A stretch of 64,000 nucleotides of DNA, from positions 960,001 to 1,024,000 of the forward strand of contig OZ246001.1 in NCBI GenBank assembly GCA_965230295.1, read 5' to 3'. The position numbers and the translations under genes were made by a program. The DNA is from Marinicella sp. Its GTDB lineage: Bacteria; Pseudomonadota; Gammaproteobacteria; Xanthomonadales; Marinicellaceae. The notes beneath the pieces are model-generated. The model searched no databases, was not told the DNA's origin, and saw nothing but the letters and a program-made list of their open reading frames with translations. Below, piece by piece: positions 2,073-35,606 of the stretch. The stretch's first letter is position 1. Every line of letters starts with the position of its first letter.

Positions 2073-2073
2073 C

Positions 2074-4172: not shown

Positions 4173-4642
4173 GCCTTGGCTAAGAACTCTAAATGTTTGA
4201 GTGCGCGCTTATAGACGTTTTTCTTAAAGTGTATAACATTTTCAGCCGGGTACCAGAAATTAACCCATCGAAAGGCTTCAAACTCAGGCTTACTGGTTTT
4301 ATTGAAATCAACTTTCGATTCGTCTTCTAATAACCTCAACAAGTAATACACTTGCTTTTGCCCAACAAATGACGGGTCAGAATCACGTTTGTGGAATTTT
4401 TTGGGTAACTGGTATTTTAACCAGCCGGGAGTCGAACCCAAAACGTCCACGTGGTGGGGTTTTAAACCCACTTCTTCGTATAATTCCCTGAACATGGCCT
4501 CTTCCGGGGATTCGTCGTTATTTATACCCCCTTGCGGAAATTGCCAACCATTTCCTCTGGTTCGCTTGGCCCAAAACACTTGACCTTCATTGTCGAGCAA
4601 GATGATGCCCACATTGGGCCTAAAACCATCTCGATCAATCAT
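4169..4642 (-). CDS. rppH: RNA pyrophosphohydrolase
   Basis: MIDRDGFRPNVGIIL N-terminus, WQFPQGG and Nudix box ESPEEAMFRELYEEVG. Confidence 0.95.
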   Translation of the reverse strand: MIDRDGFRPNVGIILLDNEGQVFWAKRTRGNGWQFPQGGINNDESPEEAMFRELYEEVGLKPHHVDVLGSTPGWLKYQLPKKFHKRDSDPSFVGQKQVYYLLRLLEDESKVDFNKTSKPEFEAFRWVNFWYPAENVIHFKKNVYKRALKHLEFLAKA

Positions 4643-4852
4643 GATGACATAAAATTTTTAAACTGAGTCTATTGTTTCAAAAAAATGAAACTTGAGCAAG
4701 CAGTTTAAAGCAAACAGAAAATAATGTGCATTACCACACAACACTTGAATGGCACCTCCAGATCGTCGCTCAACCATTCAGTAAACAGGGTATACATCCC
4801 CCAAAGGCCCAATTCATGCTATCATAATAACCGTGTGAAAAAGCGGTGTGTG

Positions 4853-5998: not shown

Positions 5999-6060
5999 CT
6001 GACCCGGTAAACGGAACCCACCCTGCTCAGTGACACCAAACAGGGCAGAAACTTCATGGT

Positions 6061-6996: not shown

Positions 6997-7116
6997 TAAA
7001 AGAAACCTCAGAATAATTAGTTAGAATTTCTGTCAAACAGAAAAAGCGCCTATCTTACCATGTAGCAGTCATGTTCTTTATAAAATATACCTGCGTGAAA
7101 ATCAATCGACCCAAGG

Positions 7117-7215
7117 GCTGAAGTTGTTACGGTCTGTCTCATCGTTGCTTGTCTCGTGAAGGACTTGCCATTCACTTCTACGAGGCGCCTTGATCAAGCC
7201 CGTAACAACTTCAGC
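7117..7215. repeat. Palindromic intergenic element with perfect 16-bp terminal inverted repeat
   Basis: GCTGAAGTTGTTACGG (7117-7132) and CCGTAACAACTTCAGC (7200-7215) enclose an inner imperfect hairpin. Confidence 0.75.
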
Positions 7216-7228
7216 AGAAACCCTCAAA

Positions 7229-10125: not shown

Positions 10126-10409
10126 TCAATCACCTTAGGAACCAAATAGTGGTCATCATCGGCATGCGCAGCCAATGCCAACAAAGCCTGTTTATGAGAG
10201 GAATCAGTGACTGTATCTTGACGGGTCATTTGCCATGCATCATTGGGATGAGCCATGGGTTTAATGGCCGTTGTATTGGCGTCATTGACGTGCTCAATCA
10301 TGTCCATCACTTGATTCAATGAAGCAGTGATCTCACTGACTTGATCATCAGGTATATTCAGCTGCGCCAAGGCAGCAATTTCTTCTAATTCTTTACGATT
10401 AATTGACAT
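10122..10409 (-). CDS. gatC: Asp/Glu-tRNA amidotransferase subunit C
   Basis: 95 aa, IAALAQL..., YLVPKVIE C-terminus, directly upstream of gatA. Confidence 0.93.
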   Translation of the reverse strand: MSINRKELEEIAALAQLNIPDDQVSEITASLNQVMDMIEHVNDANTTAIKPMAHPNDAWQMTRQDTVTDSSHKQALLALAAHADDDHYLVPKVIE

Positions 10410-10433
10410 TTAGGTAGTAGGATTCATATATAA

Positions 10434-11564
<1,131 letters not shown>

Positions 11565-11597
11565 TTTGAACATGAAAACAACCACGTTTTATTTTCA

Positions 11598-12443
11598 ATG
11601 GACAACCTGAAAAGCAACCAGAAAATAACCCAATCTCCACTGTTTAAATTTTTAATACTGGAATTCATCTGCATGCTGTTGATGATTTCTGATAAAAATA
11701 ATCAACTGGCCCAACCCATCAGGAACACTTTGTCACTGGCAGCCATTCCATTGATCAAACTCATCGAATGGCCCCAGGAAATTTATCAAATAGCTGAAAT
11801 TGCGGTTTCCAGACAGGCCAATTTGATCCAGGAAAATAACGAACTCAAAGAACAACTGTTGGATGCTGAGCTAAAAGTACAACAAAACGTATCTTTGGTG
11901 GCCGAGAATGAAAGGTTGCGGACCATGTTGGCGGCCACTCAGACTTCACCTTTGACCACCAGCGTGGCATTTGTCTCTAACATCAGCCAAACACAGAAAA
12001 CACAACATGTGGTGATTGACCAAGGCAGCCAGGATGATCTGTTTGTTGGTCAAGCCGTGCTGAATTTGGATGGTGTGATTGGCCAAATTGATGTACTGGG
12101 TCATAATTTTGCCCATGTTATTTTGATCACCGACCAAACCCACGCGATACCCATCGAAATACTGCGGACAGGTATGCGCACCATCGCTTATGGCAATGGT
12201 GAGGCAATCGTGTTGACTGAAATTCCCACCAGTGCCGACATCAAAACGGGAGATATTTTGGTGACATCAGGATTCGGCAACCGCTTTCCACGAGGCTTGA
12301 AGTTGGCTGAGATTCAAGAACTGGACGTCAGCCCTGATCGCACCTTTAAAACAGCCAATGCCAAACCATTTGCCCAACTGGATCGCCTGACAGAAGTGTT
12401 CTTGATCTGGCCCAATGATCCTTCAGACCCAGCTGATGAATAA
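11598..12443 (+). CDS. mreC: Rod shape-determining protein MreC
   Basis: TM helix, coiled coil (ENERLRTML), GDILVTSG..RFPRGL, and synteny. Confidence 0.93.
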   Translation: MDNLKSNQKITQSPLFKFLILEFICMLLMISDKNNQLAQPIRNTLSLAAIPLIKLIEWPQEIYQIAEIAVSRQANLIQENNELKEQLLDAELKVQQNVSLVAENERLRTMLAATQTSPLTTSVAFVSNISQTQKTQHVVIDQGSQDDLFVGQAVLNLDGVIGQIDVLGHNFAHVILITDQTHAIPIEILRTGMRTIAYGNGEAIVLTEIPTSADIKTGDILVTSGFGNRFPRGLKLAEIQELDVSPDRTFKTANAKPFAQLDRLTEVFLIWPNDPSDPADE

Positions 12444-19642: not shown

Positions 19643-20650
19643 ATGAATAACAAGATACCCCTGAACATCCAATCATCAAAAACAGCTGGCCCAAAGTCCA
19701 ACGGACCTAAAGTGGCCGGTGCCAAAGAATTGGGCGCCAAGAAAACCGATCGCAGCCGAGCAGGCTTTGACACGGATGCACCCCGTTTACGCAAACCTGA
19801 TTGGATAAGAGTGCGCATTCCAACTGGCAATGCGGTGCAAAAACTAAAAAGCAAATTACGCACCAATTCTTTGGTCACTGTATGTGAAGAAGCCTCATGC
19901 CCAAATATACACGAATGCTTTGGCAAAGGGACCGCCACTTTCATGATCTTGGGCGAAGTGTGTACCCGCCGATGCTCATTCTGCGATGTGGCCCATGGCC
20001 GCCCTTTACCTCCAGACACCAAAGAGGCTGAAAACCTGGCCCAAACCATCGCTGATATGGGCCTCAGTTATGTGGTCATCACTTCTGTTGATCGCGATGA
20101 TTTGAAAGATGGCGGCGCACAGCATTTTGTCGATTGCATTGCCGCGGTTCGTGATAAAAACCCTGACATCCAGATTGAAATCCTGACTCCTGACTTCCGT
20201 GGCAAAGGCCGCATGGACAAAGCCCTGGAAATTTTGGCCCAAAGCCCGCCTGATGTGTTCAACCACAACTTAGAGACGGCATATGCCTTATACAAAACCG
20301 TCAGACCAGGTGCTGATTACCAATGGTCGCTGGATTTATTGAAAAAATTCAAAGCGCAGCACCCTGAGATCCCCACCAAATCAGGTATCATGGTAGGCTT
20401 GGGTGAAACTTATGAACAGGTTCAGGAAACTTTACAACATTTGGCTGATCATGATGTAGAAATGATCACCATTGGACAATACCTGCAACCCACCCAAGGT
20501 CATCACCCTGTGTTGAATTACTGGACCCCGGATGAATTCAAAGCCATCGAAGAATATGGTTATTCCTTGGGCTTCAAACACATTGCCGCAGGACCACTGG
20601 TGCGTTCTTCATATCACGCCGATGTTCAAGCCCACCAAGCCGGAGTCTAA
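19643..20650 (+). CDS. lipA: Lipoyl synthase
   Basis: [20 protein letters not shown] radical SAM motif and RSSYHA. Confidence 0.98.
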
Positions 20651-20663
20651 TGTGGATTCCAAA

Positions 20664-20743
20664 GATAAATTGGACTGAACAATGGTAATTTGTACTGTAC
20701 ATCGCTATTTTGTACTGTACAGCGCTATCTTGGACTGATGAGC
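20664..20743 (+). repeat. Four tandem 20-bp putative TnsB (transposase) binding sites
   Basis: GATAAATTGGACTGAACAAT, GGTAATTTGTACTGTACATC, GCTATTTTGTACTGTACAGC and GCTATCTTGGACTGATGAGC at an exact 20-bp period inside the transposon end. Confidence 0.8.
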
Positions 20744-20749
20744 GCAGAA

Positions 20750-21034
20750 CTACTCAAACTCTCCTACTTTCCCGATTATGGGCGCATATGGAGGGTTGAG
20801 TGGGTATACGACATTCAGTACATCCGGCGTATAAATCCTTTTCCTATTCTGGTCATCGTTCCATTCAATTTGAACAGGTTGAACCTCAAATTTGCTAACA
20901 TTTGACTTAAATTCAAAATATATCAGCACATCCCTTTCAAGTGTAGATTCAAATCCAGCATCACCAATCGATTTAACACTTGGCAGCAACCCTGTTAAGT
21001 TTCTGTAATTTTTTGGTATTTTCCGAACAGACAC
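20750..21034 (-). pseudogene. tnsA: Truncated TnsA-like endonuclease (N-terminal fragment)
   Basis: RKIPKNYRNLTG, FESTLERD, FEVQPVQI and YTPD are TnsA N-domain motifs. Homology breaks off shortly after YTPDVL. No tnsB, tnsC or tniQ is present. Confidence 0.82.
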
Positions 21035-21343
21035 AAATGCATAACAAATTAATTCCTAACAATATTATACGTTACATATAAATTACAACTTAGTATATAT
21101 TTTTATTGATACAATCCAAAATATCACTGTACAAAAACATGATGTATAAAATATTTTTCTTTATTTGCAAACAGTTAAACCTTTATATTAATATATTTTT
21201 TCAACAACTCTTCTTTTCGAGTCAAGTTGCAAATCGAATTCTGTTGCTGTATGGCGACTTTTCATTACTACATTTATGAGCATTTAAATTGATCAAATTC
21301 CATCATTTAAGTGCGCTTTTAACAAAGGACTTAAGGTGAAATA

Positions 21344-22795
21344 ATGAGTAAACGATTCCTAATTTTAACTTTACTAGTTTCTGCGAACTTCTCTTCTGTT
21401 TATGCAGATGATTTATTCGATTCTATAATCCCCAATAGCGGGACAATATCCCCAAGACCAACGGTTAATTCCTTCAATGATGTCGAAGTAAATTTTGATG
21501 CACTCGCTGAAGCACCCGAAACTTTAGACATCACATTACCAAATTCAGCATTGATTACTGTCACAATGAGTGACTTTCGATACCGTCGTGGTTATCAGTT
21601 TCCTGATGATGAAGATGATCCACCAGGCACACCCATTACTATAATTCCCGGATTCCCAATCGATGACATGAGTTACAAATGGAGTGGTGGTAACGACCAG
21701 TGGGATGTTTTACTTACTGTAACCAGGGGTGTTTTATACGGCATCATCACCAGTAACGATAAACGTTATGGAATTTCCAAAGTCAATGGCACAGACTATG
21801 CATTGGCTGATTACAATCTACAGGCATTCAGACCGCTTGATGGTGCTGCTGGCACACCTATTCCTACTCCAACTAATCGAAGCAGTATTCTTGAAGGGCC
21901 TACAATCGACAATACATCAATCAGTCATTTAAAGTCTTATGATAATTCAGGAAAGTCATTAACTGATGATCTAACCAGAGGTAGTTCCACAAATTTAGAT
22001 GTCCTCATCATTTGGACAGAAGACGCAAGAATTGAAGCAGGGGGAAACCCAGGAGATTTAAATGATACTGCCGATATCGATGCATTAATGGTAACTGCTA
22101 TTGACCATGCAAATGAAGCTTTTACAAACAGTGAAGCAAACACAAGAGCAACAAAGTTTCATACAGCAAAATTAAATGGATTTGTCTACCACGGCTCTAC
22201 TGTGAACCCTGTACCAGATGATGCATTTGCAATAGATTTAGAAAACCTTACAGCTATAACTTCTGTTCAAACTTTAAGAACTCAAGTAGGCGCAGATGTG
22301 GTCACTGCTATCATGGCTCCTAGTGCAACTGTATTTACGCCATGTGGAGTCTCATGGGTTTAGACTTTTCCAACATGCAGTGATTTAAGACCCGATTCAA
22401 ATTGTGATACTGGTGTAGATTTTGAAGATTTCACTTACAACATCACAGTTCAAGAATGCGTTTTGTTTACCGATGCTTATACACATGAATTTGGACATTT
22501 AATGGGTGCAAATCATATTTTCACAGAACTTACGTCAACATGGAGAAATGCTGTAGTAAGTAATGGATACCCAGAAGCATTTGGGTATTCAAACTCTACT
22601 TTCAGGTCAATTATGTCAGTTACCAACGTTACTTCAAGGCGTTTGAATTTCTCAAACCCTCTAGTAACTGTAAATGGCGTAGTAACTGGTGTATCGGGTA
22701 GTGCAGATAATACGTCTACAATTGACTCATTGACTCCTACAATGGCAAACTACAGAACACGACCTGATTTAATTTTCGAAAGTGGATTTGAGTGA
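21344..22795 (+). pseudogene. Secreted reprolysin/M12-like zinc metalloprotease interrupted by one in-frame TAG (22361-22363)
   Basis: ORFs 21344-22363 and 22463-22795 are in the same frame. Reading through the TAG gives an unbroken sequence to HEFGHLMGANH, the Met-turn SIMS, FSNP and a C-terminal DLIFESGFE. Confidence 0.8.
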
Positions 22796-23415
22796 ACGCA
22801 TTGATTAACAATTTCTTAAAGAAATATTTTGTTCTATTAACATTACTATTGATAAGCTCAGTAAATGCAGAAGTTGCTGATCTGAGCTTATCAATGGAGT
22901 TTGATGGGGAAGATTCTGGAATTGTTTACCAACAAAATGGTACTTTCAGAATAGTTGTTACCAATAATGGTCCAGAAGCAGCCGGAACCAATTCAACTTT
23001 ATCAACACCAATAACAGTCTTTAGCGGGTTCGTTGAACTTGCAGCTGATGGCACAGAAATGAACTATGGATTGGACCCCAATGTCACCCAAGAATGTGGA
23101 TTTGGTTTAATAGCAGTAGACCCAAGGCCTGGCGATCCGCCAGGATTTGTTTTTGTATTCAGAAGTCCAGTCATTCAACCTAATTCATCAATTACATGTC
23201 ATGGGATTTACTCAATCAACTTTCCACTAGGAACAAGAACATATCAGTGGAATGTAAATGGCCACATTGATGATACAGACCCTAATTCATCAAACAACAT
23301 ATTTCCAGTAACTTTTGGAGTTGCCCCTGTTCCTGTCCCTACATCTAATCACTTTGGGTTGTTGATATTATTTTTCACATTCTTGGTTTTTGGTATAACT
23401 AAGCTCAAGAGTTAA
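22792..23415 (+). CDS. Secreted DUF11-like Ig-fold protein with IPTL-CTERM-like sorting tail
   Basis: Signal peptide, ADLSL...VTNNGP...DPNSSNN, then VPVPTSNHFG followed by a hydrophobic helix and basic residues. Confidence 0.7.
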   Translation: MNALINNFLKKYFVLLTLLLISSVNAEVADLSLSMEFDGEDSGIVYQQNGTFRIVVTNNGPEAAGTNSTLSTPITVFSGFVELAADGTEMNYGLDPNVTQECGFGLIAVDPRPGDPPGFVFVFRSPVIQPNSSITCHGIYSINFPLGTRTYQWNVNGHIDDTDPNSSNNIFPVTFGVAPVPVPTSNHFGLLILFFTFLVFGITKLKS

Positions 23416-23418
23416 TAA

Positions 23419-24078
23419 TTGAATTCGATATTTATGGAAGAATATGAAAGAAAGAATCAGATTGAAATAGAAGAGTTCATCAACGGGTATTCGCTATCTG
23501 ATCTATTTAGGTATTGGAAAGGAACCCTGGATGACTTTGGCATCAACTCACAAAACATGTTTACCGACATCAATTTATCGGACCCTTCATTGGTGGGCAG
23601 GTCACCTGCCTATTCATGGTGGTTTAAAAATGAGCTTTCTATTCAAATCAAAAAATTTAGGGACCACATCAAAACTTGGCCATCAACTAGGGGCCCTATA
23701 TATCCAGAGGAATTCAGAAAAGGTGAGTTAGAAACTTTGGGTTATTTATGGATTCTGAGGAATAACAATTTTAAAGTCTTTGCTTTATTATTGTGCTGTT
23801 CATTGTTCCCCAAAGTAAAATCATCTAGAACACATTACCCTAGAGAAGAATGGCCACCATTTTATTGCGTCGATGCACTTTATCAAATGGCTGAAAAAGA
23901 ATGGCGAAATGGACAAGGCCTATTTTCATGGCATTATTCTTGCACAAATGTGATTCCTACTGAATTGTCAGATCGTCATTTTAAAATCGATTCAGTCGTT
24001 GGAATTGTCAAGTTTGCAGCCATTGAGCATGCACAACTTTTATCAAAATATCAGCCTGTTCGTCTTATCTTTGATTAG
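23419..24078 (+). CDS. Hypothetical protein (transposon cargo)
   Basis: 219-codon AT-rich ORF with no recognised motif. Confidence 0.6.
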   Translation: MNSIFMEEYERKNQIEIEEFINGYSLSDLFRYWKGTLDDFGINSQNMFTDINLSDPSLVGRSPAYSWWFKNELSIQIKKFRDHIKTWPSTRGPIYPEEFRKGELETLGYLWILRNNNFKVFALLLCCSLFPKVKSSRTHYPREEWPPFYCVDALYQMAEKEWRNGQGLFSWHYSCTNVIPTELSDRHFKIDSVVGIVKFAAIEHAQLLSKYQPVRLIFD

Positions 24079-24108
24079 ACATGAAGGAATTATCATGAGT
24101 AGCATTGA

Positions 24109-24813
24109 ATGACACAAATTCCGGCAGTTTTTCAAGCTAAAGGTTTTTTGATGCTATTATGTGATGCCAGTTTTCAATTACGACAGGCAGTAAAAGAGAA
24201 AGATTCTTATTCAAACAACAGATACGCCAGAGCTTCAATTATCGCATCAGTGCTTTCAATTGAATCCTGTGCTAACTCACTATTAACTAGCTTAGAACTT
24301 CCAAAAAAATTTCTACAGGAATTAGATAAATTACCAGCAATTGGGAAACTTGAAACTTATTTAAGGATTGAAAACAAAAAAAACATTGATAGAGGAAAAA
24401 GTGAAACACAAAAAGTTATAGAGTTAATAAAACTGAGAAATGACTTTGTTCATCCAAAAATCAAAAAAATTGAAAGCACTATTTCTCCACTCACCGAAGA
24501 TGGAGAATTTTTATCACTACCTTTTTCAATGATGCCAGATAAATGGCCTGCATTAAACATTCCAAAACACAGCATGTTTTGGTCTTCAGATACAGCCAAA
24601 ATTGCTGTTCAAGCTTTATTAGAGTTTTATGAGTATCTATTTACTGAGCTGTTAGAAATGAATAATAAAGAAATTGAAATACATTTTTTTGATTCTCTAC
24701 AAATTGGAGATACGGATATTCTGTTTTGCTTTGATGAAGTCAGGGATGAGTTAAACAGTTTGAAAAACTATGGATTTTCAATAGGTTTTATTGAGAACAG
24801 CTTGCCCAACTAA
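24109..24813 (+). CDS. Hypothetical protein with HEPN-like R-x4-H motif
   Basis: Helical pattern ASIIASVLSIESCANSLL and KLRNDFVHPK. Ends directly against the transposon end. Confidence 0.6.
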   Translation: MTQIPAVFQAKGFLMLLCDASFQLRQAVKEKDSYSNNRYARASIIASVLSIESCANSLLTSLELPKKFLQELDKLPAIGKLETYLRIENKKNIDRGKSETQKVIELIKLRNDFVHPKIKKIESTISPLTEDGEFLSLPFSMMPDKWPALNIPKHSMFWSSDTAKIAVQALLEFYEYLFTELLEMNNKEIEIHFFDSLQIGDTDILFCFDEVRDELNSLKNYGFSIGFIENSLPN

Positions 24814-24880
24814 TCCTTAGTACAAATTACCACTGTACAAACAGCATCCAGTACAAAATAACTTTGGAATTAACATCTAA

Positions 24881-24940
24881 TGTCAATTCCAAAGTTAAGT
24901 TGAAGCGGTTGCTGTTTTTGCACAGTTAAATTGTACTGAC
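24881..24940 (+). mobile_element. Second Tn7-like transposon end directly after the TCTAA duplication (partner end not found)
   Basis: TGTCAATTCCAAAGTTAAGTTG...GTTAAATTGTACTG closely resembles the inverted 24820-24875 end. Confidence 0.7.
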
Positions 24941-25099
24941 AATGTTTTGAGGTATTTAATAGAAATTGAATATCTGTGTTATTTGGCCTTCTGCATCTAT
25001 TCTACAGCTTCTTCTTTTGATTGAATGAATGGAATGATTTAAAGCCAAGAAGCCACAATTTTATTGCTGATCATTTTGAACTCACCAAGGAAAGCTGCT

Positions 25100-25560
25100 G
25101 AGCAGCTTGACCCGCCGAGCCGGTTAGGCAAATCATGCAATCATGGCGGTTTGACGAAGTCAATAAGCCTTGATGTAATGATTGATTAGCCGTGAGCTTT
25201 TGATGCTGCGGCCGCTATCGCTCCTTGCTATCGCGGCAGACCTACATCCATGTAGGCCAATCAGAGGCGCAGAGCGCGAGGAAGCATGTCATGTTCGCCT
25301 CGGCAGCTACCGCATCGATCCCCAGGACGGGGTGAATGCAGAGAATTGTTGGGAACAATTCCTGCCTGCTATCGCTGCATACTTACATCCATGTAAGCAG
25401 TCGCTTTCACTTTTGTCTGGAACAGACATGCAGTGCGAAGCAACTGCTCAGACAATAGTCTGTAAAGGTCGGTTTATTTGCGCAGCAAATATGAAGACCT
25501 GTCAGACCATGAACCAGAATGAAGCCCCAAGAACATTCCTTTGTAAACGAATCAAAAAAG
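25100..25560. repeat. GC-richer multi-hairpin composite repeat/MITE-like element
   Basis: 32-bp direct repeat at 25226-25257 and 25367-25398. Hairpins CCTACATCCATGTAGG, CTTACATCCATGTAAG, GAATTGTTGGGAACAATTC and CAGACAATAGTCTG. Shares blocks with 42411-42470. Confidence 0.6.
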
Positions 25561-25597
25561 TATTGTGTTGGCTTTTTTGATTCGTTAGAACCAACTA

Positions 25598-26278
25598 TCA
25601 ATTCGACTTGGTTCTTAATTTGTATAGCAAAGCCAAAGCAAATCCTGAAAGTATCAGTAAAATGGCAAACACTGGCATTAAAAATGACAGTGGCAACCCG
25701 ACAACTATCAACCCCAGCCCGATTGCTAATAAATTAAAAGCTTGTTTGTTTGGTACCAAAACCCCTATTTTCTTTGATATCAGTTCATCAATACTGAGTT
25801 TTCCGGCTCCGGAAAATACCAATGGAAATAACATTAAAATATACAATAAAGGCAGTTTAAAGTTTCCATATCCTTTATCTGAAATTGCATACCCTTGCCA
25901 GAGGTTTGATAGTGATGACCAGTCAGTTGGCCAATGAACAGCAGCAGTGGCAACTGCTGTAATTACAAGTAAGGACATTGCTGCAAGGCGTGTAAAGATG
26001 CCAACCAGAATCAATATTGAAAAAATGATTTCACCCCAGGTTGCCATAAACCATGACACATCTGTCGGAATTATGTTGAATGGAAATGGAAAACTGTCTT
26101 TGATTGAGCCAAACCAATTACTGCCATTTAATTTAGTCATTCCTGATTCCCAAAACTCCCAAAATAATATCAATCTTAAAAACAGTGCCGGTAACCATTG
26201 AGCCCCAGCATTCAATTGTGCAACTGTACTTAGCGTATTCGATAAAACTTTATTTTTTACAGACATTATGCCCTCCAT
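25598..26278 (-). CDS. DoxX family membrane protein (HvfX-like)
   Basis: LRLILFWEFWESGMTK, FPFPF, AAVHW, GNFKLPL and GAGKLSID. Confidence 0.8.
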   Translation of the reverse strand: MEGIMSVKNKVLSNTLSTVAQLNAGAQWLPALFLRLILFWEFWESGMTKLNGSNWFGSIKDSFPFPFNIIPTDVSWFMATWGEIIFSILILVGIFTRLAAMSLLVITAVATAAVHWPTDWSSLSNLWQGYAISDKGYGNFKLPLLYILMLFPLVFSGAGKLSIDELISKKIGVLVPNKQAFNLLAIGLGLIVVGLPLSFLMPVFAILLILSGFALALLYKLRTKSN

Positions 26279-26343
26279 TTTTTTTTGATTGGTAAAAGCA
26301 ACAAAATGAAGGACATCTTCACTTTGTTGCTCATTGGATTGAT

Positions 26344-26799
26344 TTATAAACTTGATGCGGGTTTGTTTTTAATTTTCTTCCAGTGCTTATCAGCTTTTTT
26401 GATGTTTCCCGGGATGTCTTTAACCCATGTTGATTTGATACCGTTATCTAAATTAAAGTATAGTTTTCCATCAACCACTTCCCATACATTAGGATCACCA
26501 ATGAATTTCTTTCCAACTGATGCGCCAAATGCACAGAAACCACCATATTGAGGCAAATACTTTTCGGGATTTTTATTAAAGGTATCTAAGTTATCTTGAT
26601 TGGCGAAGATATAGTTAACTTGATCTATACTGGCCACAAAATTACCATTTCCAGGTATGGGCTTCTTGTCGGTTTGGTATGAAACCAAATCATAGCCTCC
26701 AGCCCCAACTGTACTGTTGCTAACAAAATCTGCGGATGCATTTAAAGTAAACATAATTAATAAAGTGCCAATTAGTTGTAGTGTTTTAATGTTTTTCAT
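26344..26799 (-). CDS. Secreted YHS domain-containing (seleno)protein family member, Cys form
   Basis: Signal peptide, GYDLVSY, PEKYLPQYGGFCAFG, VDGKLYFN and IKKADKHW. Confidence 0.85.
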   Translation of the reverse strand: MKNIKTLQLIGTLLIMFTLNASADFVSNSTVGAGGYDLVSYQTDKKPIPGNGNFVASIDQVNYIFANQDNLDTFNKNPEKYLPQYGGFCAFGASVGKKFIGDPNVWEVVDGKLYFNLDNGIKSTWVKDIPGNIKKADKHWKKIKNKPASSL

Positions 26800-26845
26800 G
26801 TTTTTTCTCTGGTTGTATTTAAGTTAATAAAATTAAAAAGTGATA

Positions 26846-27385
26846 TTAGGCGGCTATGGTATTAACGACAGGAAAATCAATTTCTGTCCCGGCCAAATGA
26901 TTGAAGTAGTTGGTGAAGATATTCAAGCCAACGTGAGCAATGATTTCTACCAATTCTGCATCGGTAACTCCGATTTGACGCAACGACTCCGTTGCTGAAG
27001 GATTCAAAACACCTTTATTAACAACTATTTCTTTGACATATTGAAGAATGGCAGCTGTTTTTTGATTTTGAGATTGACCTGTTAGGTTTAACTGGATTTC
27101 TTGTTCATCAAGGCCAGTTTTTTTGGCAATAAAAGAGTGCGCGGATGCACAGTAATCACAATTATTTACCCCACCCACCGTTAATGCTATTTGTTCTCTT
27201 AATGATGGACTCAAGTGGCCTGATGACAATGATCCGCTGAACGCAAGATACCCCTCTAAAGCCTGTACTGAATTGGCCATTGTGGAAAAAATGTTTGGGA
27301 CCACGCCCATTTGTGCTTTTATCGAGTCGAGCACATCTTTCGCTTGGCCTGATTGATCTTTATTGACTGGTTGAATGTTTTGCAT
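26846..27385 (-). CDS. AhpD-like peroxidase / carboxymuconolactone decarboxylase family
   Basis: GVVPNIF, REQIAL and NNCDYCASAH (CxxC..H), plus TNYFNH...IDFP. Confidence 0.88.
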   Translation of the reverse strand: MQNIQPVNKDQSGQAKDVLDSIKAQMGVVPNIFSTMANSVQALEGYLAFSGSLSSGHLSPSLREQIALTVGGVNNCDYCASAHSFIAKKTGLDEQEIQLNLTGQSQNQKTAAILQYVKEIVVNKGVLNPSATESLRQIGVTDAELVEIIAHVGLNIFTNYFNHLAGTEIDFPVVNTIAA

Positions 27386-27412
27386 GTTGTTTCTCCTGGT
27401 TAATAACTAAAA

Positions 27413-27560
27413 GTATACCGATCTGTATACGTTGAAGCATATAGTATACAGATCGGTATACACTGTCAAGCATTAATTTTTTTGATTTATTAAAATAAAG
27501 GTGATTTGCATCAATATATGAAAGAGTGTATGATGAGAAAAAGTAAACATATCGGTATAT
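27413..27560. promoter_or_regulatory. Three palindromic operator boxes for the divergent TetR regulator
   Basis: GTATACCGATCTGTATAC (27413-27430), GTATACAGATCGGTATAC (27444-27461) and GTAAACATATCGGTATAT (27543-27560). Confidence 0.75.
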
Positions 27561-27563
27561 TAA

Positions 27564-28121
27564 ATGTCAATAAAGAGGCAACAACTCATCGACACAGCCA
27601 TTAAGTTATTTAACGAACATGGATTTCATGGAGTAGGCATCGACTGGATTGCAAGAGATGCTGGTGTTACAAAAAAAACCATGTACCACCATTTTCATTC
27701 TAAAGATGAGTTGATACTGGCGGCCTTACATCACCATGATGGCCTTTTCAGAAATGAATTCATGAATGGTGTCAAAAACAATTTTGAAACACCTTACGAT
27801 AGGCTTTTAGGAATTTTTGATGCAGCACATGTATGGTTTTCTGATCATAAGTTTTACGGTTGCATGTTCATTAATGCAATTGGCGAGTATTCCGAATCAG
27901 CTTCCCCCATACGGAGTGTTTGTAAAGAGTTTAAAAAACAGATGCGCCAATTTATTGTGTTGTTAGCTAAAGATGCTGGGGTAAAAGACCCAGAAACCTT
28001 GGCAAATACTTTGGCAATTCTCTTAGAGGGTTCTATTGTTACAGCCCAGGTTTCAGAAAATCCGAATGCAGCAATTGATGCAAAACAAGCTGCCAAAGTA
28101 TTGGTCGATAATGCTTTGTAA
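27564..28121 (+). CDS. TetR/AcrR family transcriptional regulator
   Basis: N-terminal HTH GFHGVGIDWIARDAGVTKKTMYHHFHSKDEL, and GCMFINA. Confidence 0.92.
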   Translation: MSIKRQQLIDTAIKLFNEHGFHGVGIDWIARDAGVTKKTMYHHFHSKDELILAALHHHDGLFRNEFMNGVKNNFETPYDRLLGIFDAAHVWFSDHKFYGCMFINAIGEYSESASPIRSVCKEFKKQMRQFIVLLAKDAGVKDPETLANTLAILLEGSIVTAQVSENPNAAIDAKQAAKVLVDNAL

Positions 28122-28219
28122 AGGTTAATAATCATTCAACTTCATTAACAATTCATAAAAACCCATTCATCATCAGTTTCTGAACGCCTTAGAATTCCGA
28201 TCAGTGCTCGGCTTTATTG

Positions 28220-28520
28220 ATGAAGCACCTTATTCTATTTTTTTGTAATTAATGGATTACCGTTCAATTGAATTTTTAAATCTAATAAGTTTTGTCTAGA
28301 GCGCCTCTGCGGCTTGAATTGAATTTGCTTCCGGTTTTTTATAGAGTATCTGGGCATTGGCCATTTCTAACAACTTTAAATTGGTAGTTAATCATTGATT
28401 AACCTGGTTGATGGCTTGCTTCAATGTCACCACTTCTCATTGAAATTTTTGCAAAACTTCCGTCAATTCAGCAGGTATGGTGGTGTTGGGTAATCTTTTG
28501 ACTTCAAAATAAAGTACTGT
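28220..28520 (-). pseudogene. Degraded gene remnant with multiple stops (coiled-coil segment)
   Basis: The minus strand reads FEVKRLPNTTIPAELTEVLQKFQ*EVVTLKQAINQVNQ*LTTNLKLLEMANAQ..., protein-like but with stops. It resembles from memory the C-terminal part of BNR/VPS10-type glycosyl hydrolases. Confidence 0.4.
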
Positions 28521-28614
28521 TTTGATTCTCAATCAGTATTGAAAGAGTGATCAGTTCTTCTGGCTGGTTTTTTAGGGCTGTATTGCCTATGATAACCCCT
28601 CTAACAAATAAAGT

Positions 28615-30657
28615 ATGAGGTATGACTTGAGGCTTGAATCAACATTTATCCAATTACCATGTCTGTTTGATCAATCAAAGTTACAGCAGGATATTTCAGC
28701 ACTTCCCAATGAAGCCTGGCGAAGTCACCCTCAAGGGTTTGCGGGCAATTCAGCGGTTTCCCTGATAGCCCGTCATGGTGATGCCAATGATGACCGCACA
28801 TATGGATCCATGCAAGCAACACAATGGCTGGATCAATTGCCATACATCAAAGCCGTGATGGCTTACTTTAAAACACCATTGGGCCGTTCTCGCTTGATGC
28901 GCATCGAAGGCGATGCCCAAGTTCCCAGCCACACAGACCTTGACTACTACTGGCAAGGACGCATGCGACTTCATGTGCCCATCATCACCAATCCGAGTGT
29001 ACGTTTTGAGTGTGGTGATGACGCTGTACATATGTCGGCAGGTGAAGCCTGGGTGTTTGACACCACCGAATTACACCGTGTTCTCAATGAAGAAGGTGGA
29101 GAACGCATTCACTTGGTTTTTGATACTGTGGGCAGTGCTCATTTATATGATTTGATCTCAAAATTTCCATCTCCAACGATTGAATCACTTGATCAGACAC
29201 CCTTATCCATCGAAAAGACTGATTTGTTGTTCGAATCTCACAACAGGCCTCAGGTCATGAGCCCATATGAGCAGCAAGTCATTATGAATGAATTTTTGGG
29301 TTTATTAACCACCGAACATGACCCCAATGTGGTTGAATCAATAGCCACAGCATTCAAACCCGTCATGCATGACTGGCGAGCTGCGTGGGCTCAGTATGGG
29401 ACCAACCCATCCGGTCACAACACTTTCATTGAATTACAAAAACGTTTGGCTCAGATCGCAACGAATTGTGGAGCAAATAGAACTTTAAGGAATTCTGCGA
29501 TCGAGTTGTGGTTGCAGCATTGGTTGGTTGATCCGGCTGTGGATGTGGATGAAACCAAGAACACATCCAGGGGACACCAAACACCCAAATCAAACCAGGT
29601 CGAGCAGGCACAGATGTCATTTGACAGTCAATATACTGATAGTTTGCCTGGTTTGATTGCGCATCTGAATGGCACTTTGGTAGCCACCACCTACGCCAGT
29701 AATCGGGTGGTCTTGATGCGTTCTGATGGTCATGATCTGAACACCCATTTCAAAGACTATACTGGCCCGATGGGGCTGGCTTATGATGACAATCATATGG
29801 CTTTGGGGGTACAAAATGCCATCTGGATTTTTCGATCACAACCCGACCTTGGCGCCGCACTACAGCCCAATTGCGATGCGGTTTATGTACCCTTCAAACA
29901 GCACATGACCGGAGACATTCGGATTCATGAGCTGGGTTGGTCAGACAATGAACTGTGGCTGGTCAACACCCGATTTTCTTGTTTGGCCACCCTGGATGAG
30001 GATCACAGCTTCAAACCTCGTTGGCACCCTAAGTTTATCAAAGACTTGAGTGCTGAAGACGCTTGTCACCTCAACGGGATGGCCATGCGTGATGGTAAGC
30101 CTGCATGGGTCACTGCCTTGGGCATCAGTGATCAACCTGGTGGTTGGCGAGCGCATAAACTGCAAGGCGGTGTGGTCATAGATGTGGCCAGTGGTGAAGT
30201 GGCCACTGACGGTTTATGCATGCCACATTCACCAAGATGGCATGGCAACAATTTGTGGGTACTTGATTCTGGACGTGGTGAATTGTGTCAAGTCAACCCA
30301 CAAAACGGACAGCGCGAAACAGTTGCTAAATTTCCCGGCTTCACACGAGGTTTGGCGATGATAGATCGCTATGCATTTGTTGGATGTTCTCGAGTGAGAG
30401 AGAAAGCATGGTTTGGCGGTTTACCCATTCTGGATCAAGACAAACCACCTGAGTGCGGCGTGTGGGTTGTGGATTTGGTTACTGGTCAAATCATTGGTTG
30501 GATAGTTTTTGCAAATGGTCTTGATGAAATATTTGATTTGCAATGGTTGCCTGGCCAACGGTGGCCAGACATTCTGGAACCGGATGAACCGACAGCCAGA
30601 AATGGCTTCAGCTTACCTGCCGAAAAAATCAACCATTTTAACCCTGGCAAAACTTAA
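28615..30657 (+). CDS. Fusion of Asp/Asn beta-hydroxylase-like 2OG-Fe(II) oxygenase and TIGR03032/DUF4915 domain
   Basis: N-terminal RSRLM, HTD (HxD), RLHVPIITNP, HRVLN and RIHLVFD. C-terminal TGDIRIHE, VNTRFSCLA, EDACHLNGMA, MPHSPRW and PGFTRGL. Confidence 0.85.
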   Translation: MRYDLRLESTFIQLPCLFDQSKLQQDISALPNEAWRSHPQGFAGNSAVSLIARHGDANDDRTYGSMQATQWLDQLPYIKAVMAYFKTPLGRSRLMRIEGDAQVPSHTDLDYYWQGRMRLHVPIITNPSVRFECGDDAVHMSAGEAWVFDTTELHRVLNEEGGERIHLVFDTVGSAHLYDLISKFPSPTIESLDQTPLSIEKTDLLFESHNRPQVMSPYEQQVIMNEFLGLLTTEHDPNVVESIATAFKPVMHDWRAAWAQYGTNPSGHNTFIELQKRLAQIATNCGANRTLRNSAIELWLQHWLVDPAVDVDETKNTSRGHQTPKSNQVEQAQMSFDSQYTDSLPGLIAHLNGTLVATTYASNRVVLMRSDGHDLNTHFKDYTGPMGLAYDDNHMALGVQNAIWIFRSQPDLGAALQPNCDAVYVPFKQHMTGDIRIHELGWSDNELWLVNTRFSCLATLDEDHSFKPRWHPKFIKDLSAEDACHLNGMAMRDGKPAWVTALGISDQPGGWRAHKLQGGVVIDVASGEVATDGLCMPHSPRWHGNNLWVLDSGRGELCQVNPQNGQRETVAKFPGFTRGLAMIDRYAFVGCSRVREKAWFGGLPILDQDKPPECGVWVVDLVTGQIIGWIVFANGLDEIFDLQWLPGQRWPDILEPDEPTARNGFSLPAEKINHFNPGKT

Positions 30658-30767: not shown

Positions 30768-33700
30768 TTATTCGAAACCATTTGCAAAAATGACATCAGA
30801 TAATGTGGTTGAGGTAAAGGTGTCTGAAACCCCACCAATGGTCACTTCGGTATCTACCGGGGTAAGGATGGTAGATGCTGAGGTGTGTTGTGCCCTGACT
30901 TCATCGCCATCGACCACTGTACCTGGAGTGGAAACAAAAGGCCCTCCATTGATTGAGTAACTACCACCAGTGACAGAGATGGCAACCATTGTATTGATTC
31001 CCGTAACTGTGATGGTGTTGGAGGTTTGTAACGAGTCCGGAGACACATCTGTTGTATCAGTGAAACTGAACGCATCAGGTGTGGCATCTTCAAGCAGAGT
31101 CGTGGAAGAAAAGGTATCACTGACACCGCCAATGGTAAGCTCTGTATCCACCGTGGTGTTGAATGATGACGATGAAGTATGCTGTACAGCCACTGTATCA
31201 CCATCGACCACTGTACCTGGAGTCGAGACAAATGGACCACCATTCACCGAATAACTGCCATCAGTCACAGTAATCGCAACAGATGTGTTGATTCCACTGA
31301 CATTGATCGTATTCGAGGTTTGTAATGTATTCAAGGCCACATCGGTCTGGTCTGTGAAACTGAACGCATCAGGTGTGGCATCTTCGAGCAGAGTCGTAGA
31401 AGAAAAGGTATCACTGACGCCGCCAATGGTAAGCTCTGTATCCACCGTGGTGTTGAATGATGACGATGAAGTATGCTGTACAGCCACTGTATCACCATCG
31501 ACCACTGAGCCTGGAGTCGAGACAAATGGACCACCATTCACCGAATAACTGCCATCAGTCACTGTAATCGCAACAGATGTGTTGATTCCACTGACATTGA
31601 TCGTATTCGAGGTTTGTAATGTATTCAAAGCCACATCGGTCTGGTCTGTGAAACTGAACGCATCAGGTGTGGCATCTTCAACTTCCGTAGTCGATGTGAA
31701 TGTGTCATCAACACCCCCAACAGTCACAACTGTGTCTACAGCTGTACTGAAGGCTGCAGATGATGTGTGGTGAGCTCGCACCATATCACCATTGTTCACC
31801 GTTCCTGGCGCCGTCTCCAAGGGTCCGCCATTGATTGAATAGCTACCTCCGATGACAGTGATTGGAGTGGGTGAATTGATGCCAGTGATGTCGACCGGAT
31901 CAGAATCAATGGTCGCACTCAAAGCCACATCAGTTTGATCTGTAAAAGTGAATGCATCAGGTGTGGTATCAATGTTGTTGATTGCTATGTAGTCTTCAAC
32001 TTCTCCGCTGACCGCCAGGCCAGTTGGGTCTGCTGCTGCCACATCGGAGCTCAACCTGAACCGTGCCATGGTTAACAAGGCTGCACCGCCTGGAGGTGCA
32101 GGAAGTGTCAAGTTGACATCAGCTGCAGTGGTGCCATCTGGTACTGCCACTGTTCCACGTTCAGTGGCATTCTCAAACACCCCATCACCGTCGTAATCGA
32201 TCCAACCGTATAAGGTGGCAGCACCACCAGATGTGTTGGTGACATTGACCGACAGAACCGGTGCTGAAGCCGCAAACTCAATCGCTGCTGCTATGGCATC
32301 TTCATCATCCAGGTTGTTGTTGTCATCGCCATCGGCATCGACTGAAGGTAAGCCATCTGGATCGTTATCTGTCAAGGCACCCAGGCGCATGCCCGCCACC
32401 CGAACATGGGCAGGACCATCGTCAGCACCACGGGTTTGGTAATCAACCAGCATGGTGTCCGTCACAATCTGTCCAAAGACCTCGTTTTCACCATCTACCA
32501 AAGGTGCCGTGTCATCATCGCCATGGAAAGTCACCAATGTGTCACTGTTGGTGCTGTTGTAGGCAACGGCTGCAGTGAAAGCACCAAAGGTTGTCGCTCC
32601 ATCAGGCCCAAAATTGGTTAAGCGCACTTCATCAGTATCAATCACGGTGCCCAGGTTATCGACCCGCCGCACCCAAATTTCATTTTCATTATCAACAACC
32701 TCATCACCCTGGAACGCCACAATGTAATTGTTGGTCACCGGATTGAAGGCCACAGCTGAGTTGGTACCAATGAAACTGGTTGAACCGGCCAATCCCACAT
32801 CACTGATCTGGAAATAGGCACCAGTAGGCAGCCCCGTACTGGCGGTTACCAATTGGCCAAAAACTTCATTCTCGCCATCACTGACCAAAGCATCATCACC
32901 ATGGTAAGTAACGAGAAACTGGTTGTTTCCAGCGTTGTAAGCCAAGTCGGGGTTTGATGCCCTGGACAGGGTCGAACCAACACCTCCGAAAGTGGTTAAT
33001 CGGGTTTGGGTTGCACCGACTGCCCCGCCACCGCCATCGACCCTGCGGCCAAAGATTTCATTTTCGTTGTCAACGCTGCCGTTGGCATCATCATCTGCAT
33101 CCCACACCACCAAAAACTGATCGGTGGCACTGTTCCACTCCAGCTGGGGGTTATTGGCCCTGAAATTGATGCTGGAACCATTGGCACCACCCATCGCACT
33201 GATTTGCATGCGATTACCCAAGGCGCCAAAAGTGGCGGCATTGTATCGTTGGGCAAAAATTTCGTTTTCATTGTCCAAGAGACCATCATCCCCGGTATTC
33301 AGATCGCCGGCCCAAACCACCAAAAATTCATTGCTGGTGGCACTGTATGAAACCCCTGGATCAGCTGCTCGAGATCCTGTGTCACCATCAGAACCCATGG
33401 TGCTGACCCGCAGTTGTGAATCCAGTAAAGTCCCTGTGTTGGAGACAAAGCGGCCAAAAATCTCAAATTTATTGTCGATGGCTGCCACTTGATCACCTTG
33501 CCACACCACCAGATATTCATTGGTGACAGATGACCAAGCCACATCTGGGTTGAAGGCATCTCGATCGGTGTCAGCATCCATGATGGCAAATTGATTGCCG
33601 ATCAATTGTCGAGTATCGCCATCAATGCGTTGTCCCCAAATCTCAAATTCATTGTCATTCACATCATCGGCGACCCAAACAACCAAATACTCATCATCAG

Positions 33701-35606
33701 TGGCGTTATAGGCCACTCGGGAATTGTTAGCACTGCGAGCAGTGTCTCCATTGGTACCAGCAAAACTGATCCTGAAATCATCATCACCGTTTTCCAACAA
33801 CACTTCAACATCACCTGTACCTGTGGCGAAATCAGGCGCATCGCCATAATCTATTTGAATCAACTCATAAGCGCCAATATCAACCAGGGCTGAGCCATTG
33901 AGGTCACCATCAACCACACGGCTGAAGATGCCACCACGTTGATCGGTACTCAGACCACCGATTTGACCGGCATCACCGGCGTCGATGGCTGGACTGGTAT
34001 CGCTCAATGCATGGGTTGGTGTGGGTCCACGATTGTCAGTCAATCCGACCAAATCGGGATCAGACGAGACCGCAATGGTACCGGTAAAACCAGTTTGACT
34101 TTCAATCAAGTTCCCCACACCATTGGCTGTTGCGGTTCCACCTGAAATGGTATTAACCAACACATCATCACCACCGGTGGTGTTGGCCACTATGGTGTTG
34201 TTCAATACAGCCGTTGAATTACCACCATTACCTAAAATGTAGATGGCCCCATCTCCGCTGCCTGAGGTTGTGGTACTGCCTCCACCAGCCACTGCACTGT
34301 CTGTCACTGTCACATGACGCAAGTCTATTGATGCCGTGGTACCACCATTGTTCATGCTGAATATGGCTCCACCCAGGCCATCACCGCCGCCACCATCTGC
34401 CAGTGGACCACCTGGCTGACCGTAAGGGGTCAAACCACCACTGCTGCCACCGGTCGAAGTACTGCCTGAGATGGTTGAATTCCTTACATTTAAAGTTCCG
34501 CCATAGTTAAAAATGGCACCACCGAATGCCGCACCACCGCCGCCATCACCACTGGGTTGGAAAGAATTGCGGTTGGCGCGGCCGTTGGTACCAGATCCAC
34601 CGCCGAAACCACCTGATCCACCAACACCCACGATGCGGGTGTAATTGAAAGAAACCACGCTGCCGCCACCGCCGCCACCGCCGCCAAATCCGCCAGCGCC
34701 ACCATTACCACCGGTACATGTGCCTGAGCCACCACCGGTACACAAAGCACCGCCTCCGCCTCCAGCACCACCGAATAGGCCACCAGTTCCACCAGCAGCA
34801 CCACTTCCAGTTCCTGCACCCGATCGACCGCGACCACCGCCGCCACCGCCACCATCACCGCCTGCACCACCATTGACACCACCGCCATTGGGTCCACCAC
34901 CGGTTCCACCTGTGTTGTTTGAAGACTGGCCGCCCGCGCCACCTGCGCCGCCGCCACCAGAGCCACCATCACTGGCACTGCCGCCGTTACCGCCAGCACC
35001 ACCGGTTGCACTGTTGCCAAATAAGGTTACGCCTTCTAAGTCAACGGTACCTTGATTGAGGATACCACCTCCCATACCGGCACCACCGCCGGCACCAGCC
35101 GTGCGTGACCCTGAGCGACCGCCCACTGCAGAACCATTGCCCAAGGCCAAATTAGAAACGTTCAAAGTCGATCCTGGTTGCACATGGATCAGACGGAAAG
35201 CTGTGTTTGATGTTGCAGTCCGTTCTACTGTGACGCCATTGTCGCCAGATGGACCATTGATATCGATGCTGGTGTTGTTGCCTATGATGAAAGCCGTTGG
35301 TCCATATTCACCATTGTTTAACCCATCATTCACTTCCGAAAGTGTAATGGTCACATCACCATTGGCCACCAGAGCCGCAGCAAAGTTGATTGTATGACTA
35401 CCACCCAATGCAACCGATTCTTCGATGGCAGCCCGCAATGAAACACGGCCGGCTGCATCAGCTGCTGTGCCATCACCCGGGTTGGCGTCGACCGTATCCA
35501 GCACGGTATCTACATTAAAAGTTGCGGCTTGCGCACCGCCACCCATCAACCCAACCATCAATCCAACATACAGACGGTTTAAGGGTAAAGATTTTTTATT
35601 TGACAT
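30768..35606 (-). CDS. Giant secreted surface protein: CSLREA-like N-terminus, Gly-rich region, choice-of-anchor-Q-like segment, beta-propeller-like repeats, GEVED domain, four ~98-aa repeats
   Basis: Signal peptide and VSLRAAIEES. Long GGxGG tract. PTPTHAL..SPAIDAG..DQRG..DIGAYE. DYGDAP, GWIDYDGDG and GEVEDY. Ends DVIFANGFE. Confidence 0.88.
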   Translation of the reverse strand: MSNKKSLPLNRLYVGLMVGLMGGGAQAATFNVDTVLDTVDANPGDGTAADAAGRVSLRAAIEESVALGGSHTINFAAALVANGDVTITLSEVNDGLNNGEYGPTAFIIGNNTSIDINGPSGDNGVTVERTATSNTAFRLIHVQPGSTLNVSNLALGNGSAVGGRSGSRTAGAGGGAGMGGGILNQGTVDLEGVTLFGNSATGGAGGNGGSASDGGSGGGGAGGAGGQSSNNTGGTGGGPNGGGVNGGAGGDGGGGGGGRGRSGAGTGSGAAGGTGGLFGGAGGGGGALCTGGGSGTCTGGNGGAGGFGGGGGGGGSVVSFNYTRIVGVGGSGGFGGGSGTNGRANRNSFQPSGDGGGGAAFGGAIFNYGGTLNVRNSTISGSTSTGGSSGGLTPYGQPGGPLADGGGGDGLGGAIFSMNNGGTTASIDLRHVTVTDSAVAGGGSTTTSGSGDGAIYILGNGGNSTAVLNNTIVANTTGGDDVLVNTISGGTATANGVGNLIESQTGFTGTIAVSSDPDLVGLTDNRGPTPTHALSDTSPAIDAGDAGQIGGLSTDQRGGIFSRVVDGDLNGSALVDIGAYELIQIDYGDAPDFATGTGDVEVLLENGDDDFRISFAGTNGDTARSANNSRVAYNATDDEYLVVWVADDVNDNEFEIWGQRIDGDTRQLIGNQFAIMDADTDRDAFNPDVAWSSVTNEYLVVWQGDQVAAIDNKFEIFGRFVSNTGTLLDSQLRVSTMGSDGDTGSRAADPGVSYSATSNEFLVVWAGDLNTGDDGLLDNENEIFAQRYNAATFGALGNRMQISAMGGANGSSINFRANNPQLEWNSATDQFLVVWDADDDANGSVDNENEIFGRRVDGGGGAVGATQTRLTTFGGVGSTLSRASNPDLAYNAGNNQFLVTYHGDDALVSDGENEVFGQLVTASTGLPTGAYFQISDVGLAGSTSFIGTNSAVAFNPVTNNYIVAFQGDEVVDNENEIWVRRVDNLGTVIDTDEVRLTNFGPDGATTFGAFTAAVAYNSTNSDTLVTFHGDDDTAPLVDGENEVFGQIVTDTMLVDYQTRGADDGPAHVRVAGMRLGALTDNDPDGLPSVDADGDDNNNLDDEDAIAAAIEFAASAPVLSVNVTNTSGGAATLYGWIDYDGDGVFENATERGTVAVPDGTTAADVNLTLPAPPGGAALLTMARFRLSSDVAAADPTGLAVSGEVEDYIAINNIDTTPDAFTFTDQTDVALSATIDSDPVDITGINSPTPITVIGGSYSINGGPLETAPGTVNNGDMVRAHHTSSAAFSTAVDTVVTVGGVDDTFTSTTEVEDATPDAFSFTDQTDVALNTLQTSNTINVSGINTSVAITVTDGSYSVNGGPFVSTPGSVVDGDTVAVQHTSSSSFNTTVDTELTIGGVSDTFSSTTLLEDATPDAFSFTDQTDVALNTLQTSNTINVSGINTSVAITVTDGSYSVNGGPFVSTPGTVVDGDTVAVQHTSSSSFNTTVDTELTIGGVSDTFSSTTLLEDATPDAFSFTDTTDVSPDSLQTSNTITVTGINTMVAISVTGGSYSINGGPFVSTPGTVVDGDEVRAQHTSASTILTPVDTEVTIGGVSDTFTSTTLSDVIFANGFE
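31061..31679 (-). repeat. Near-identical 294-bp intragenic tandem repeats
   Basis: TGAAACTGAACGCATCAGGTGTGGCATCTTC recurs at 31061, 31355 and 31649. More diverged units flank them. Confidence 0.9.

Follow-up and report, generated by a model that had tools for sequence, protein, structure and literature searches.

A Tn6022-like Tn7-family copy beside lipA in Marinicella and its relatives at the 3' end of the same gene

An element directly downstream of lipA

The 64,000-nucleotide stretch of Marinicella sp. analysed here (contig OZ246001.1, positions 960,001 to 1,024,000; hereafter the window) contained an intact lipoyl synthase gene, lipA (19643..20650, plus strand; Pfam Radical_SAM and LIAS_N; TAA at 20648-20650), directly followed by an element (20651-24875) that is very probably a non-autonomous copy, with an internal deletion, of a Tn7-family transposon of the Tn6022-like type that homes to the lipA 3' end. 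The lipA-proximal end (20651..20737, plus strand) began TGTGGATTCCAAAG at 20651, the first base past the lipA stop, which places the insertion point exactly after the native TAA, and consisted of a TGT terminus and four closely packed TTGGACT/TTGTACT repeats. The inverted distal end (24814..24875, minus strand), TGTTAATTCCAAAG, carried three packed repeats, closed with ACA at 24875 and was of the same type as the distal ends of another Marinicella genome (G003). The element was bracketed by a 5-bp target-site duplication, TCTAA, read directly and recovered by a repeat search, with the first copy (20646..20650) including the lipA TAA and the second at 24876..24880. The repeat search also returned terminal inverted repeats of 28 nt (79% identity) and a direct repeat covering TCTAA and the adjoining end (20646-20672 and 24876-24902, 85%). 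The TGT on the base after the lipA stop, the ACA at 24875 as the element end, the TCTAA bracketing and the related subterminal sites at both ends had all been proposed in a first-pass annotation of this DNA; direct reading and the inverted-repeat search bore them out. The last ~80 nt of lipA are presumed to be the attachment sequence.

The 14-nt terminal motif TGTNNATTCCAAAG had three exact matches in the window, and only these stood out, because allowing up to two mismatches gave 15 matches against 11.1 expected. Across the 4.0-Mb genome, many matches were found at up to one mismatch, and the same three were the only ones followed by subterminal TTGTACT/TTGGACT repeats, as judged by eye. Over 21-25 kb of the window the GC content was 32-38%, whereas the 18 kb lying upstream of lipA had 43-50%. 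The alternative of an integrase-type island was rejected, as no recombinase gene was present and the ends and 5-bp repeat were of Tn7 type.

Two transposition gene remnants lay just inside the lipA-proximal end. The first (20738..20821, plus strand) comprised the opening 28 codons of a remote tnsE gene, the remainder being deleted; its start matched P0001, the 578-aa product of the first gene of the lipA-site element in Marinicella G021, and its ATG overlapped the last repeat of the 87-nt lipA-proximal end. The second (approximately 20816..21034, minus strand) held the first 73 codons of tnsA, which encode its N-terminus; like tnsA in intact relatives, it was read toward lipA. It shared 62 of 71 residues with the full-length TnsA of the Marinicella MAG (metagenome-assembled genome) G004 and was 56% identical over 71 residues to the TnsA of L060, a complete metagenomic relative, while its match to Pfam PF08722 (E 8.7e-4) was below the family cut-off. 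The tnsA fragment of the first-pass annotation was therefore confirmed. In the window genome, tnsE codon 28 has been brought next to tnsA codon ~73 by a deletion. No TniQ match was found in this genome, nor any TnsB, TnsC or TniQ of the family by tblastn, and the copy cannot move because the cognate tnsB, tnsC and tniQ are missing from the genome: the window element is a dead fossil.

Occupancy of lipA in relatives

The same end was found directly at lipA in four of the 23 other Marinicella species (G004, G003, G021 and G008); in 18 others unrelated sequence followed lipA, and in the last the contig was cut inside the gene. The ends in G004 and G021 were 88% identical to window 20612-20825, and a degenerate trace of the end was present in a neighbouring genus (G024). 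When the end pattern was searched for in a collection of 185,579 species, six stretches were returned, namely the four known Marinicella and two chance matches in unrelated coding sequence. At the protein level, P0001-like (tnsE-like) sequence was present in seven of 44 genomes of the taxonomic family, always adjoining lipA, including full-length homologues in two sister-genus genomes (G054 and G046). Examination of the sequence downstream of lipA, as the first-pass annotation had suggested, thus revealed related ends in 4/23 Marinicella and in two genomes of a sister genus.

A metagenome scan yielded 35 loci, of which 26 were examined together with the two sister-genus loci (28 in total); the nine outside this set were either cut by a contig end (L064, L069) or weak matches (L074-L080). 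The lipA 3' end lay directly upstream in 25 of the 28 loci. In 23 of them the upstream sequence encoded the ...RSSYHA lipA C-terminus, and L063, which starts inside the lipA tail, and L045, with an SYFA variant recognised as lipA by Pfam, were also at this gene. In a class-level sample of 400 genomes, three had matches, and only one, a lipA-linked fragment in G332 from one further gammaproteobacterial family, belonged to the lipA family. On unrelated metagenome contigs, the tnsE-like proteins encoded at lipA were between 28 and 93% identical to P0001. The claim of an insertion family that targets the lipA 3' end was upheld by these 25 of 28 loci and by the independent insertions described below.

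Insertion point

Of the 26 loci scored, 23 had the element terminus 26-32 nt after the Ala codon of the SSYHA motif. Two pairs among the 26 were identical in sequence (L046/L047 and L054/L055); four further loci were left unscored as the search pattern missed their terminus. In 18 of the 26 (e.g. L046, L057, L062), the lipA frame ran into the element, which supplied the stop codon, and lipA is there predicted from the reading frame to gain a short element-encoded C-terminus. The 48 nt upstream of the SSYHA anchor were conserved across 23 occupied sites, because this block encodes an invariant protein motif. The lipA-side terminus was TGA instead of TGT in some members.

The duplications varied by site, with TCTAA in the window, GCTGA in L060 and TGTGA(G) in G003. 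Together with the patchy occupancy among Marinicella species, this indicates independent insertions and not one inherited event. Under the opposite explanation, there would be no homing, and a single ancient insertion beside lipA would have been inherited vertically and decayed in each lineage. All the copies in the window genome, G003 and G021 are indeed degraded, and the 88% identity between the ends of the window, G004 and G021 would fit common descent. This explanation is nevertheless extremely improbable, given the unrelated sequence after lipA in 18 of 23 other Marinicella, the site-to-site variation of both the duplications and the exact insertion points, the existence of intact tns operons, and the wide divergence of the tnsE-like proteins found at lipA on unrelated metagenome contigs.

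Architecture of intact relatives

Intact elements with tnsABC and a candidate selector, whose existence the first-pass annotation had proposed to check, were found in L060 and L062, where Pfam recovered the whole tns operon; partial operons were recovered in L046, L049, L061 and L065. The operon comprised tniQ (321-350 aa), a TniB-type tnsC (~297 aa), tnsB (~622 aa) and tnsA (~214 aa). It lay on the strand opposite lipA and read inward from the far end, and the P0001 homologue read inward from the lipA side. TnsA matched PF08722 and PF08721 and TnsB matched Mu-transpos_C in L060 and L062, while TniB (PF05621) and TniQ (PF06527) were detected in L046, L049, L060, L061 and L062. The L060 element was complete, running over ~7.8 kb from TGTGAATT... 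to ...AATTCACA between two copies of GCTGA. The closest intact relative was L046/L047. The cargo of intact members, located between the tnsE homologue and the tns operon, consisted mostly of restriction-modification genes, and no cargo ORF common to distant members was found.

P0001 had no match among Pfam, NCBIfam or PDB profiles. Its AlphaFold model (pLDDT 77) was compared to the PDB with Foldseek, and the top seven matches were TnsE C-terminal domains (9d5l, 5d16, 5d17), with a best E-value of 1.9e-3, probabilities of 0.96-1.0 and target-normalised TM-scores of up to 0.61; the N-terminal two thirds had no PDB match in this fold search. On the strength of the modelled fold, P0001 is regarded as a remote TnsE homologue. 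No match to the tnsE-like protein was found by tblastn in 72,556 plasmid records.

A relative inserted in comM was also present in Marinicella (L082; G022:C17:89000-107370). It contained, in order, a comM 5' fragment, tnsA, tnsB, tnsC, a 347-aa tniQ and a convergent 638-aa tnsE-like gene (E 1e-21), and no TnsF-sized gene was found between tniQ and tnsE. Its cargo included an OLD-like ATPase and a SMODS and SAVED-HNH pair of the type found in CBASS.

Target selection and end polarity

The first-pass annotation had postulated a dedicated target selector that reads the lipA 3' coding region. Independent insertions at lipA, the fixed spacing and the presence of tniQ in intact members support such a selector, and TniQ is inferred to be this reader, by analogy with TnsD at glmS. 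Within the taxonomic family, only two genomes had a full-length TniQ of the lipA type, namely G004 and G054, and lipA was occupied in each of them; a C-terminal TniQ fragment was found inside the lipA island of G021. The TniQs of the lipA family aligned with each other over their whole length (~35% identity). When the comM relative of G022 was compared to the lipA family, TnsB and TnsC were 40-45% identical, whereas TniQ aligned only over its N-terminal ~180-230 residues; the tnsE homologue was kept at comM. The assignment of lipA reading to TniQ is supported by this lipA-linked distribution, by the full-length alignment within the family, by the divergence of the comM TniQ and by the retention of tnsE at comM. 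The TniQ model (pLDDT 89) matched TniQ and TnsD structures in general.

In the mechanism proposed, a TniQ of ~335 aa would bind the conserved lipA DNA encoding G-P-x-V-R-S-S-Y-H-A and, once bound, would recruit TnsC. Insertion by TnsA and TnsB would then take place 26-32 nt downstream, at or within the final codons of lipA, and would duplicate 5 bp of the target; the stop codon would often come anew from the element end. A second pathway, through TnsE, would lead into conjugating plasmids, and plasmid targeting is probably the role of TnsE here by analogy with Tn6022, for which this role has been shown. One locus is of note for this second pathway: in L053 (metagenome contig, 6898-11728), the neighbour of the tnsE-side end was not lipA but a conjugation gene encoding a 974-aa TraG_N protein, which fits a role of TnsE in plasmid targeting, and L053 is a possible product of the TnsE pathway.

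A different assignment would make the tnsE-like protein, alone or with TniQ, the reader of lipA, its ancestral recognition of replication structures having been repurposed into sequence-specific targeting. The tnsE-like gene always lay immediately inside the lipA-proximal end, the N-terminal two thirds of P0001 lacked any PDB match, the Pfam TnsE_C model matched 0 of 20 members, and no TnsF-like partner was conserved beside tniQ, all of which would suit this explanation. It is, however, unlikely. The C-terminal domain of P0001 folds like TnsE, and the TnsE of Tn6022 directed insertions into the conjugal F plasmid (NAR 2024, PMC11014353, in passages of that paper). Moreover, the comM-inserted relative carries a tnsE homologue, L053 belongs to the family and lies beside a conjugation gene, and the position of the tnsE gene corresponds to the general Tn6022 layout as given in passages of Faure 2023 (PMC10293859).

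TniQ remains the favoured reader. The more specific proposal is that this Tn6022-like clade homes to lipA by a short TniQ alone, with no TnsF, long TnsD or Cas component, reading the DNA of the invariant C-terminal motif, with a polarity contrary to the Tn7 rule (tnsA-distal end toward the target) and with the last codons and stop of a gene for an essential cofactor commonly rewritten by the element end; it is put forward tentatively, as a reading with somewhat less than an even chance of being right in all its parts.

In L060, L062 and L046, tnsA lay at the end far from lipA, and the lipA-facing end was the tnsA-distal one. According to passages of a preprint on Tn7 relatives (Peters 2017), it is the tnsA-proximal end that faces the recognised sequence. 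Judged by eye, repeats were more tightly packed at the lipA-side end, compared to three dispersed repeats at the tnsA-side end of L060. This tighter packing suggests that functional polarity may be conserved, the tns operon having been relocated.

Several observations weigh against the explanation set out above. Two of the 28 loci, L053 and L059, were not at lipA, and L073 was uninformative. Three of the 26 scored loci had spacings of 43, 46 and 84 nt. The tnsA-proximal end is not beside the target, contrary to the Tn7 rule as stated in those passages of the preprint. The failure of the Pfam TnsE_C model across the tnsE-like family (0/20 members) counts against the TnsE assignment, and the fold match of the TniQ model does not show sequence-specific binding; as a modelled structure, it neither proves nor excludes binding to DNA. 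That the site in the window carried a single TCTAA before insertion is a presumption. Finally, the third end described below is of distal type and inverted, unlike what simple stacking predicts.

A third end and the question of stacking

A third related end (24881..24945, plus strand) was present immediately after the second TCTAA, as had been reported in the first-pass annotation, starting TGTCAATTCCAAAG at 24881. It is not a copy of the lipA-proximal end type: beyond its first 14 nt, it resembled the distal ends (window 24875; G003 2111 and 10919), and the repeat search aligned it as an inverted repeat against the distal end of the window element (24819-24876 and 24880-24937; 58 nt, 78%). 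No tns remnant was detected downstream of it by tblastn and no tnsE start either, and a search for a matching far end, which extended to 28600, was negative. It is thus considered a solo end, having neither a far end nor any other element part downstream, and may be left over from a previous insertion, possibly an inverted one, or have arisen by rearrangement.

Two stacked insertions at one site had been proposed on the basis of this end. A further related end does follow the second TCTAA, but it amounts to a solo end of ~60 nt, distal in type and inverted. If an older element in normal orientation had its left end here, with a newer one stacked in front, the position directly after the second TCTAA would be as expected for tandem insertion; G003 shows stacked or nested copies, and tandem Tn6022 insertions in A. 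baumannii, occurring despite target immunity, are reported in passages of NAR 2024 (PMC11014353). This history is possible but rather doubtful, because past the first 14 nt the end is not of the lipA-proximal type, is not followed by a tnsE start or any tns remnant, and has no older far end up to 28600.

Stacking is better shown in G003 than in the window. The G003 lipA island (L033, G003:C8:162800-182799, 141-10919) had one lipA-side end and distal-type ends at 2111 and 10919, and its outer end pair was bracketed by TGTGA(G). It also contained a duplicated tnsE start, IS3- and IS256-family transposase genes, and four PF00144 (beta-lactamase-fold) paralogues.

In G021, the lipA island (L034, G021:C16, 2055-2345) terminated with the C-terminal part of a tniQ gene, covering profile positions 237-334 and directly adjoining an RTX-repeat protein gene; tnsC, tnsB, tnsA and the far end were therefore lost in this copy.

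Cargo and neighbouring regions

Between the tnsA fragment and the cargo, a possible remnant of the tnsA-side end (21035..21184, minus strand) was recognised weakly and by eye from TnsB-site-like repeats near 21108-21139, its terminus being unrecognisable; window 21028-21215 had only weak similarity to the candidate tnsA-side end of G004. The candidate terminus in G004 (L081:881) was itself rejected as evidence of a duplication, as its flank mismatched the 5 bp on the lipA side.

The AT-rich cargo region (21185-24813) opened with a gene for a secreted metzincin-like metalloprotease (21344..22795, plus strand; Pfam Reprolysin_4/5; HEFGHLMGANH motif), which had a signal-peptide-like start and a single frame broken by one TAG at 22361-22363 (residue 340). 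Three ORFs of 207, 219 and 234 aa followed (22792..24813, plus strand), with no family assignment. PADLOC returned no match for six window ORFs.

Downstream of the third end, the remainder of the low-GC island (24946..28500) carried DoxX, YHS-domain, CMD and TetR genes, and its right boundary was not identifiable. Synteny with G003 resumed at a DUF4915 gene (28615-30657). No end-like repeats were found in 24946-28640, where a right boundary of the island or an older far end was searched for, and no synteny downstream of lipA was found in five other Marinicella genomes, four of which have empty sites.

Two near-identical 14-nt stretches, 294 nt apart (31286-31299 and 31580-31593), were located on the strand opposite the gene for a 1612-aa GEVED-domain protein (30768-35606, minus strand) and are probably due to tandemly repeated domains in that protein. 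Outside the window, the same chromosome carried a second, unrelated Tn7-like element (L001; G000:C1:3745704-3748907) with a TnsA-like gene (220 aa) and, after it, a TnsB-like gene (408 aa as far as the locus edge); the element gave no tblastn match to the TnsB of the lipA family.

Discussion

The family described here belongs to the Tn6022-like Tn7 transposons and combines a new attachment site with the absence of TnsF. It resembles the Tn6022/AbaR-type elements found at comM in Acinetobacter in its core of TnsA, TnsB, a TniB-type TnsC of ~297 aa and TniQ, in the remote TnsE homologue near the opposite end and on the opposite strand, in the TGT/ACA termini and 5-bp duplication, and in tandem or nested copies at one site. 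For Tn6022-like elements, passages of Faure 2023 (PMC10293859) and NAR 2024 (PMC11014353) likewise place a remote TnsE close to the left end and on the other strand. Unlike Tn6022, which inserts in comM, the lipA family has the lipA 3' end as its attachment site and usually leaves the target gene functional instead of splitting it. In addition, no TnsF (Orf3) or other conserved gene accompanied its tniQ: no gene followed tniQ in the operon in L060, L046, L062 and L049, as judged by gene order and not by a TnsF sequence or profile search.

The family shares with prototypic Tn7 (TnsABC and TnsD, attTn7 at the glmS 3' end) a conserved 3' coding target, insertion at a fixed short distance downstream, a 5-bp duplication, subterminal repeat arrays and a second pathway through TnsE. 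The selectors differ, since the TnsD of Tn7 is ~508 aa long while the lipA family has a TniQ of ~335 aa. Unlike in Tn7, tnsE is located outside the tns operon at the other end, it is the tnsA-distal end that is turned toward the target, and insertion often occurs inside the last codons and not beyond the stop. A parallel in the mode of targeting is offered by the Tn7-like families of parE and nrdB, where each TniQ clade is associated with the region 3' of a single conserved gene (passages of NAR 2024, PMC11014353); the target gene itself differs.

The possibility raised in the first-pass annotation, that lipA marks an undescribed targeting pathway, held for the attachment site, while the machinery was of the known, Tn6022-like TniQ kind. 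The terms lipA, lipoyl and lipoate were absent from the main texts of Faure 2023 (PMC10293859) and Benler 2021, whose supplementary tables may list flanking genes, and lipA and lipoyl were absent from the main texts of NAR 2024 (PMC11014353) and the Peters 2017 preprint. A full-text literature search for Tn7-like or TniQ insertion at lipA or lipoyl synthase returned nothing relevant. Within the literature searched, the lipA 3' end was thus not found described as an attachment site, whereas the kind of machinery is known.

The window itself holds a fossil copy only, and its value is that of a pointer to the family. The apparent reversal of end polarity would bear on how TniQ and TnsC set the orientation of insertion. 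In genome annotation, the lipA 3' flank should be treated as a hot spot for islands, like the glmS and comM flanks. Programmable DNA-insertion tools are built on Tn7-family elements, and with every further attachment site that is guided by a protein the set of natural, compact targeting modules grows; if the reading proposed here is true, a TniQ of ~335 aa that finds a near-universal gene without a partner would be a small and portable selector.

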